Sequence record: OL956808.1
DNA length: 64,000 nt
Reading direction: 5' to 3' (one strand)
Source of the DNA: Escherichia phage vB_EcoM-S1P5QW
The number at the start of each line of letters is the position of its first letter. Within the stretch, counting starts at the first letter, position 1. The notes beneath the pieces are model-generated. The model saw only the letters and a list, made by a program, of their open reading frames with translations. It made no database searches and was not told the origin of the DNA. Position numbers and translations under genes: made by a program. Below, in pieces: positions 39,890-40,586 of this stretch.

Positions 39890-40131
39890 TGTCTGAACAA
39901 ACTATTGAACAAAAACTGTCTGCTGAAATCGTAACTCTGAAGTCTCGTATTCTTGATACGCAGGACCAGGCGGCTCGTCTGATGGAAGAATCCAAAATTC
40001 TGCAAGGAACTTTGGCTGAAATCGCTCGTGCAGTAGGTATCACTGGCGATACTATCAAAGTTGAAGAAATCGTTGAAGCTGTCAAGAATCTTACTGCTGA
40101 ATCTGCTGATGAAGCAAAAGATGAAGAATAA
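39889..40131 (+). CDS. 57A: tail fiber assembly chaperone gp57A
   Basis: 80 aa; [27 protein letters not shown]... matches recalled T4 gp57A. Confidence 0.88.
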
Positions 40132-40586
40132 TGGAATTTAAAGACTTTTCAACGGGTCTTTATGTAGCAGCTAAGTTTTCAGAATTAACACTTGATGCGC
40201 TGGAAGAACTCCAGCGCTCTTTACGTGTTCCTAATCCAGTTCCTAGAGAAAAAATTCATTCGACCATATGTTATTCGAGAGTAAATGTTCCATATGTTCC
40301 ATCGAGTGGAAGTTTTGAAGTAGCTTCTTCTGGGCATTTAGAAGTATGGAAAACACAAGACGGATCGACTCTTGTACTTGTGCTAGATTCTGAATATCTG
40401 CGCTGTCGACACATGTATGCGCGGGCACTAGGTGCTACACATGATTTTGATGATTACACACCGCATATAACATTGTCTTATAATGTTGGGCCCTTATCAT
40501 TTAGCGGTGATGTACAAATTCCGGTTGTACTTGACCGTGAATACAAAGAGCCTCTTAAACTCGATTGGGCAGATGATTTAAAATAA
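40131..40586 (+). CDS. 57B: 2H phosphoesterase, anti-CBASS Acb1 (gene 57B)
   Basis: 151 aa; two H-x-T/S motifs ([17 protein letters not shown]) typical of the 2H fold; position of T4 57B, recalled as Acb1. Confidence 0.85.

Follow-up and report, generated by a model that had tools for sequence, protein, structure and literature searches.

An intact acb1 gene (gene 57B) in its canonical position in a close relative of phage T4

Identification of the gene 57B product

The gene that directly follows gene 57A in the DNA of Escherichia phage vB_EcoM-S1P5QW (OL956808.1) is almost certainly acb1 (gene 57B), the product of which is a small metal-independent 2H phosphoesterase that cleaves CBASS signals. 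The whole stretch of 64,000 nucleotides that was analysed is referred to as the window, and the features discussed are shown in Table 1. The gene is a single open reading frame (ORF) and its product is identical to residues 2-152 of T4 gp57B/Acb1 (NP_049750.1) at 151 of 151 positions (BLASTP, E = 2e-116), where the T4 reference product is the translation from NC_000866. The product also exhibits a full-length match to the Pfam family Acb1 (PF23474) with a score of 202.7 bits (E = 2.6e-60; gathering cutoff of 27 bits), in which residues 8-149 are aligned with profile positions 1-144 of 144. The sequence matches in PDB consist of Acb1 entries only, namely 7T26/7T27 (E = 4e-62) and 9Q2G (E = 0.004). 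The sequence-only reading of this DNA had matched the gene to T4 57B and named its product Acb1. Both assignments are borne out by these matches and by the identity to the T4 protein that has been characterised (PMC9117128). The Acb1 identity of this gene is already known and does not represent new biology.

The window protein and the crystallised Acb1 of Erwinia phage FBB1 (7T26 is the apo form, 7T27 the form with 3'3'-cGAMP) are 68% identical and 85% similar across 142 residues, where the only gap is one residue long. Based on this identity to the solved 7T26/7T27 chain and on the identity to T4 Acb1, the window protein is predicted to adopt the compact 2H phosphoesterase fold with a U-shaped pocket and a C-terminal lid.

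The coding region of acb1 differs from that of T4 at nine nucleotides. All nine differences are synonymous since both proteins are identical, and the reading frame is therefore under purifying selection. Over the 1.7 kb that surround acb1, the identity is 99.3% to Escherichia phage vB_Eco_T-01 and about 97% to many of the Tequatrovirus genomes. The window belongs to a Tequatrovirus that is a close relative of T4 and not T4 itself. Using tblastn, a recognisable Acb1 homologue was identified in 1,470 records, and 498 phage records encode a protein that is at least 99% identical to the window Acb1.

Table 1. Positions of acb1, its functional residues and the neighbouring features in the window.
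Feature	Position	Strand	Remarks
Gene 3, tail tube family	about 38.6 kb to 39126	+	
Gene 1, dNMP kinase	39176-39889	+	Pfam DNMK, E = 5e-104
TATAAATA box (T4 late-promoter consensus), candidate late promoter for 57A-acb1	39526-39533	+	Inside gene 1, 363 nt upstream of 57A
Gene 57A, tail-fibre assembly chaperone	39889-40131	+	80 codons; Pfam GP57, E = 5e-51
acb1 (gene 57B) coding sequence	40131-40586	+	ATG start, 151 codons and TAA stop
Y11 (T4 Y12), nucleobase-stacking	40161-40163	+	Invariant in the eight-member alignment; role from PMC9117128
First catalytic H-x-T motif, H43-S44-T45 (T4 H44, T46)	40257-40265	+	Aligned with HTT of FBB1 Acb1
W73 (T4 W74), nucleobase-stacking	40347-40349	+	Role from PMC9117128
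F106 (T4 F107), nucleobase-stacking	40446-40448	+	Role from PMC9117128
Second catalytic H-x-T motif, H112-I113-T114 (T4 H113, T115)	40464-40472	+	Aligned with HIT of FBB1 Acb1
E140 (T4 E141), adenine N6 contact	40548-40550	+	Role from PMC9117128
C-terminal lid (T4 residues 145-152)	40560-40583	+	Sequence identical to T4; lid closure over ligand from PMC9117128
W146 (T4 W147), nucleobase-stacking, within lid	40566-40568	+	Role from PMC9117128
Promoter-like site TTTACA-17-TACTAT with TG	40600-40628		Just upstream of the internal-protein gene; hexamers shared with T4
Internal virion protein gene	40663-40896	+	Directly after acb1; PHROG 8111, E = 3e-51
Three small ORFs	40955-41815	+	Follow the internal-protein gene and precede the tRNA cluster
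tRNA cluster, 11 genes	41913-43771	+	Gln, Leu, Gly, Ser, Thr, Met(CAT), Tyr, Asn, His, Arg, Lys (ARAGORN)
tRNA-Gly	42079-42152		Flanks the homing-endonuclease gene
GIY-YIG/NUMOD3 homing-endonuclease gene	42157-42807	+	216 codons; inside the tRNA cluster
tRNA-Ser	42814-42903		Flanks the homing-endonuclease gene
acb2 gene	50986-51252	+	88 codons; 94% identical to T4 Vs.4 (tblastn), 5 differences

Catalytic and ligand-contact residues

The enzymes of the 2H superfamily carry two H-x-T/S motifs and perform metal-independent transesterification through a 2',3'-cyclic phosphate. The sequence-only reading had described H-x-S/T motifs that occur twice in the gene product. Two motifs are indeed present in this protein, but both of them are H-x-T and none is H-x-S. 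Both motifs align between the window protein and FBB1 Acb1. The same reading had proposed an alignment to T4 Acb1 as a check, in which absent catalytic histidines would count against the call. In that alignment, none of H44, H113 and the two threonines paired with them is missing or out of register.

The five ligand-contact residues of T4 Acb1 (Y12, W74, F107, E141, and W147) are all kept at the expected positions in the window protein. It has been reported that E141 contacts adenine N6, so the substrate must hold at least one adenosine (PMC9117128). FBB1 Acb1 has F at the position of W74 and Y at the position of F107, and both positions thus stay aromatic.

The family alignment was constructed from eight sequences, with identity to the window protein that ranges from 68% down to 30%. 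It consists of the window protein, FBB1 Acb1, and the homologues from Serratia phage Muldoon, Escherichia phage Skers (Krischvirus), Aeromonas phage 60AhydR15PP (Tulanevirus), Acinetobacter phage DLP3 (Lazarusvirus), Vibrio phage PC-Liy1 (Schizotequatrovirus), and Salicola phage SCTP-2. Just 13 columns are invariant, and H43, T45, H112, T114, and Y11 are among them. The position of W73 is aromatic (W or F) throughout the alignment except in the most distant member, and the position of F106 is F or Y in all eight members.

The occurrence of the motif pattern by chance was also calculated. The window protein contains 5 His and 23 Ser and Thr residues, and at least two H-x-S/T motifs are held by 16% of 20,000 shuffles of its sequence. 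The pattern is likewise found in three of the 46 ORFs of 100-250 aa within the window. The two-motif pattern was rejected as stand-alone evidence on these grounds. The pattern alone is not significant, and the Acb1 call rests on homology, which greatly exceeds chance.

LigT-type enzymes also have the 2H fold and its two H-x-T motifs. The gene product could be a LigT-type 2'-5' RNA ligase or RNA 2',3'-cyclic phosphodiesterase that acts on the ends of RNA, for instance to repair tRNA, and we consider this extremely improbable. The match to PHROG 755 (E = 5e-68) would favour such an enzyme since that group is described as 'RNA ligase', a name that is also given to the T4 protein and those of many relatives in RefSeq, and the tRNA cluster of the phage lies about 1.3 kb downstream of acb1. 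However, Acb1 is the sole Pfam family that matches at E <= 0.01, where no LigT or 2'-5' RNA ligase model was found, and the PDB matches described above point to the same family. The T4 protein was purified through its cGAMP-degrading activity and its deletion phenotype is CBASS-specific (PMC9117128; 10.1101/2025.11.20.689424). No report of ligase activity for Acb1 was found in the literature searched. LigT and the cellular 2H phosphoesterases resemble Acb1 in the two H-x-T/S motifs and the 2',3'-cyclic phosphate chemistry (PMC9117128), but LigT acts on RNA ends whereas Acb1 acts on immune signals that are cyclic di- or trinucleotides. The RNA-ligase assignment was rejected because no such match exists in Pfam or PDB and because the experimental literature is CBASS-specific. 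Given the published phenotype, any LigT-type RNA activity of Acb1 is a secondary activity at most. The acb1 orthologue goes by 'RNA ligase' or 'hypothetical protein' in many database records. The 'RNA ligase' label, which goes back to PHROG 755 and RefSeq, is a name derived from the superfamily and not experimental evidence.

The sequence-only reading had called the product an anti-CBASS nuclease. The anti-CBASS part of that name stands, but the enzyme belongs to the 2H phosphoesterases, is a cyclic-oligonucleotide phosphodiesterase, and leaves DNA and RNA polymers uncut. The word nuclease is also used for the enzyme in the original paper of Acb1 (PMC9117128).

Extent and start of acb1

The TAA stop of 57A shares one base with the ATG of acb1, and the junction is TAATG in the window as compared to ATGATG in T4. 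The T4 start region is ATGATGGAA, where 57B is annotated from the first ATG to give a protein of 152 aa. The corresponding region of the window is ATAATGGAA, which reads ATA ATG in place of ATG ATG, and the protein starts at the second Met. The extra N-terminal Met of T4 is therefore absent from the window protein. The alternative upstream start that corresponds to the annotated T4 ATG was rejected since that codon is ATA in the window, and the ATG at 40131 is thus the first in-frame ATG past the 57A stop. The first residue of the crystallised Acb1 chain (7T26) aligns with residue 8 of the window protein, and the extra Met of T4 precedes the matched region. The ORF listing contains no ORF longer than 61 aa on the opposite strand of this locus. 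The acb1 gene of the window is an intact gene in its canonical genomic position.

Conserved gene block upstream of acb1

The genes in the order of 3, 1, 57A, and 57B are arranged in the window as they are in T4, and gene 2 (DNA end protector) is also located upstream of 57A. As the sequence-only reading had stated, acb1 follows 57A directly, with the one-base overlap described above. The same order recurs in all five T4-like phages that were fetched from other groups (Krischvirus, Lazarusvirus, Schizotequatrovirus, Tulanevirus, and Muldoonvirus), where 57A and 57B usually abut or overlap. The distant jumbo phage SCTP-2 is the sole compared phage with an acb1 homologue in a different context.

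The ORF listing starts gene 3 at a TTG (38515-39126, + strand, 203 aa), whereas gene 3 is annotated with 176 codons (531 nt) in T4 and vB_Eco_T-01. Because of these annotations, an internal ATG (MKHYEEY...) is preferred. It is probably the true start of gene 3, and the longer ORF is probably an artefact of the listing.

The sequence-only reading had placed acb1 in an accessory region with at least one defined counter-defence gene. The gene is a counter-defence gene, but its location was misjudged since acb1 ends the conserved block of 3, 1, 57A, and 57B that is syntenic across several T4-like groups. The variable region, which consists of the internal protein gene, small ORFs, and tRNAs, begins just downstream of acb1.

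The conserved position of acb1 in T4-like phages resembles that of a near-core gene that is inherited vertically, unlike a typical mobile anti-defence gene, and raises a further alternative, in which Acb1 would have a second, housekeeping substrate in addition to CBASS signals. The order of 3, 1, 57A, and 57B with the 57A overlap extends to phages with Acb1 proteins of just 38-47% identity. One candidate for the second role would be the processing of 2',3'-cyclic phosphates, of other nucleotides or of RNA ends in connection with the adjacent tRNA region. Such a second role is regarded as very improbable; T4 acb1 is dispensable on a CBASS-free host (10.1101/2025.11.20.689424).

Expression of acb1

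The TATAAATA box upstream of 57A is a candidate late promoter. The same box is found at the equivalent T4 position 75012, and 24 matches to it were identified in the window as compared to the 9.8 expected. It has been reported in an expression atlas that T4 57B exhibits mainly middle and late expression (bioRxiv 10.64898/2026.03.30.715471), and a late promoter at this box fits that report. Middle or late expression is likewise expected of acb1 in the window. Because of the TAATG stop/start overlap, 57A and acb1 are probably co-transcribed and translationally coupled. The box and the overlap together suggest a late 57A-acb1 transcript with translational coupling. No intrinsic terminators were found in 38400-41200 (1.5 expected), and the sigma-70-like promoter matches in the scan (11 as compared to 10.3 in shuffles) are not in excess.

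The gene might be an intact but silent relic in this phage that is either unexpressed or redundant with Acb2, to which we assign next to no probability. The Acb2 sponge gene of the same phage could mask the loss of Acb1, and the promoter and terminator support for this phage consists of consensus matches only. Against this, the nine substitutions relative to T4 are all synonymous and the 498 phage genomes keep the nearly identical protein, which together argue for continuing selection on acb1. The upstream context of the late-promoter-like box and the 57A overlap is also conserved with T4, where acb1 is expressed (PMC9117128; 10.64898/2026.03.30.715471). An intact acb1 gene that is expressed and maintained by selection is the preferred reading.

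Variable region downstream of acb1

T4 has ipI (IPI, a GmrSD inhibitor) at the slot directly after acb1, whereas the window gene encodes a different internal protein. The resemblance between the two proteins is confined to the first ~14 residues (MKTFKEF...), which presumably form a capsid-targeting sequence. In relatives, the gene at this slot is named ipV/ipVI or Ip7. A promoter-like site is located just upstream of the internal-protein gene (Table 1).

The three small ORFs that follow occupy the positions of T4 trna.4, trna.3, and trna.2. Their products consist of 61 aa (hydrophobic and membrane-like), about 127 aa, and 95 aa, and no Pfam match was found for them at E <= 0.01. These ORFs adjoin two counter-defence-type genes in the variable stretch.

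The tRNA cluster of the window consists of 11 genes as compared to eight tRNAs in T4, where Tyr, Asn, His, and Lys are the extras of the window. The tRNA with the CAT anticodon is found at the position of the tRNA annotated as tRNA-Ile in T4. The homing-endonuclease gene inside the cluster lies exactly where tRNA-Pro is located in T4 and vB_Eco_T-01, and no tRNA-Pro was identified by ARAGORN anywhere in the 64,000-nt window. This arrangement is already known from AR1, RB18, KIT03, and others. The homing-endonuclease stretch is at least 80% covered in only 51 of the 1,052 matching records.

Anti-CBASS function and its significance

T4 gp57B has been identified biochemically and genetically as Acb1, where the cGAMP-degrading activity that was purified from T4-infected cells led to gene 57B (Hobbs et al., 2022, Nature 605:522; PMC9117128). 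The same work has reported that T4 Acb1 cleaves cyclic di- and trinucleotides that contain adenosine (3'3'-cGAMP as well as cUA and cAAA) and not cGG or cA4, and that the protein has the 2H phosphoesterase fold, in which residues 145-152 form a lid at the C terminus. The H44A/H113A protein is inactive and no longer inhibits the Cap5, Cap4, and CapV effectors, the plating efficiency of T4 delta-acb1 drops on CBASS-carrying hosts, and the acb1 gene is confined almost wholly to phages (PMC9117128). Transposon sequencing (HIDEN-SEQ) has also shown that acb1 is dispensable on K-12 and that transposon insertions in acb1 are depleted when the host expresses CBASS (10.1101/2025.11.20.689424).

The substrates, the chemistry, and the in vivo anti-CBASS effect are taken from the literature on the identical T4 protein. 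By analogy, the window Acb1 would bind cyclic di- and trinucleotides (3'3'-cGAMP, cUA, cAAA, and cAAG) that are produced by the CD-NTases of host CBASS. The aromatic stacking residues would grip the bases and the C-terminal lid would shut over the ligand. An adenosine would be twisted by the enzyme to let its 2'-OH attack the neighbouring 3'-5' phosphodiester over the tetrad of the two H-x-T motifs, which would give a 2',3'-cyclic phosphate intermediate and then linearised products such as GpAp. The signal would be removed before it could activate CBASS effectors such as the Cap4 and Cap5 nucleases and the CapV phospholipase, and the suicide of the infected cell ahead of phage release would be averted.

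The acb2 gene is also found in the window. Its product matches the Pfam family Acb2_Tad1_hairpin (PF24729, E = 9e-20). Since this homologue of Vs.4 is present along with acb1, the phage carries both known T4 anti-CBASS proteins. Acb2 (T4 Vs.4) targets the same pathway of CBASS signals as Acb1. Acb2 sequesters the signal (PMC10312549) whereas Acb1 hydrolyses it, and Acb2 has an unrelated fold and family (PF24729). It has been reported that the Panoptes decoy-nucleotide system is triggered by Acb2 and not by Acb1 (PMC11974786).

The main value of this finding is the correct annotation of the gene, where T4-like records in GenBank and RefSeq still carry the names 'RNA ligase' or 'hypothetical protein'. 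The acb1 and acb2 genes represent a degrading and a sequestering countermeasure in one phage. Infection by this phage should resist CBASS signalling with adenosine-containing cyclic di- and trinucleotides, and the pair of genes bears on the prediction of host range and on the selection of phages for therapy.
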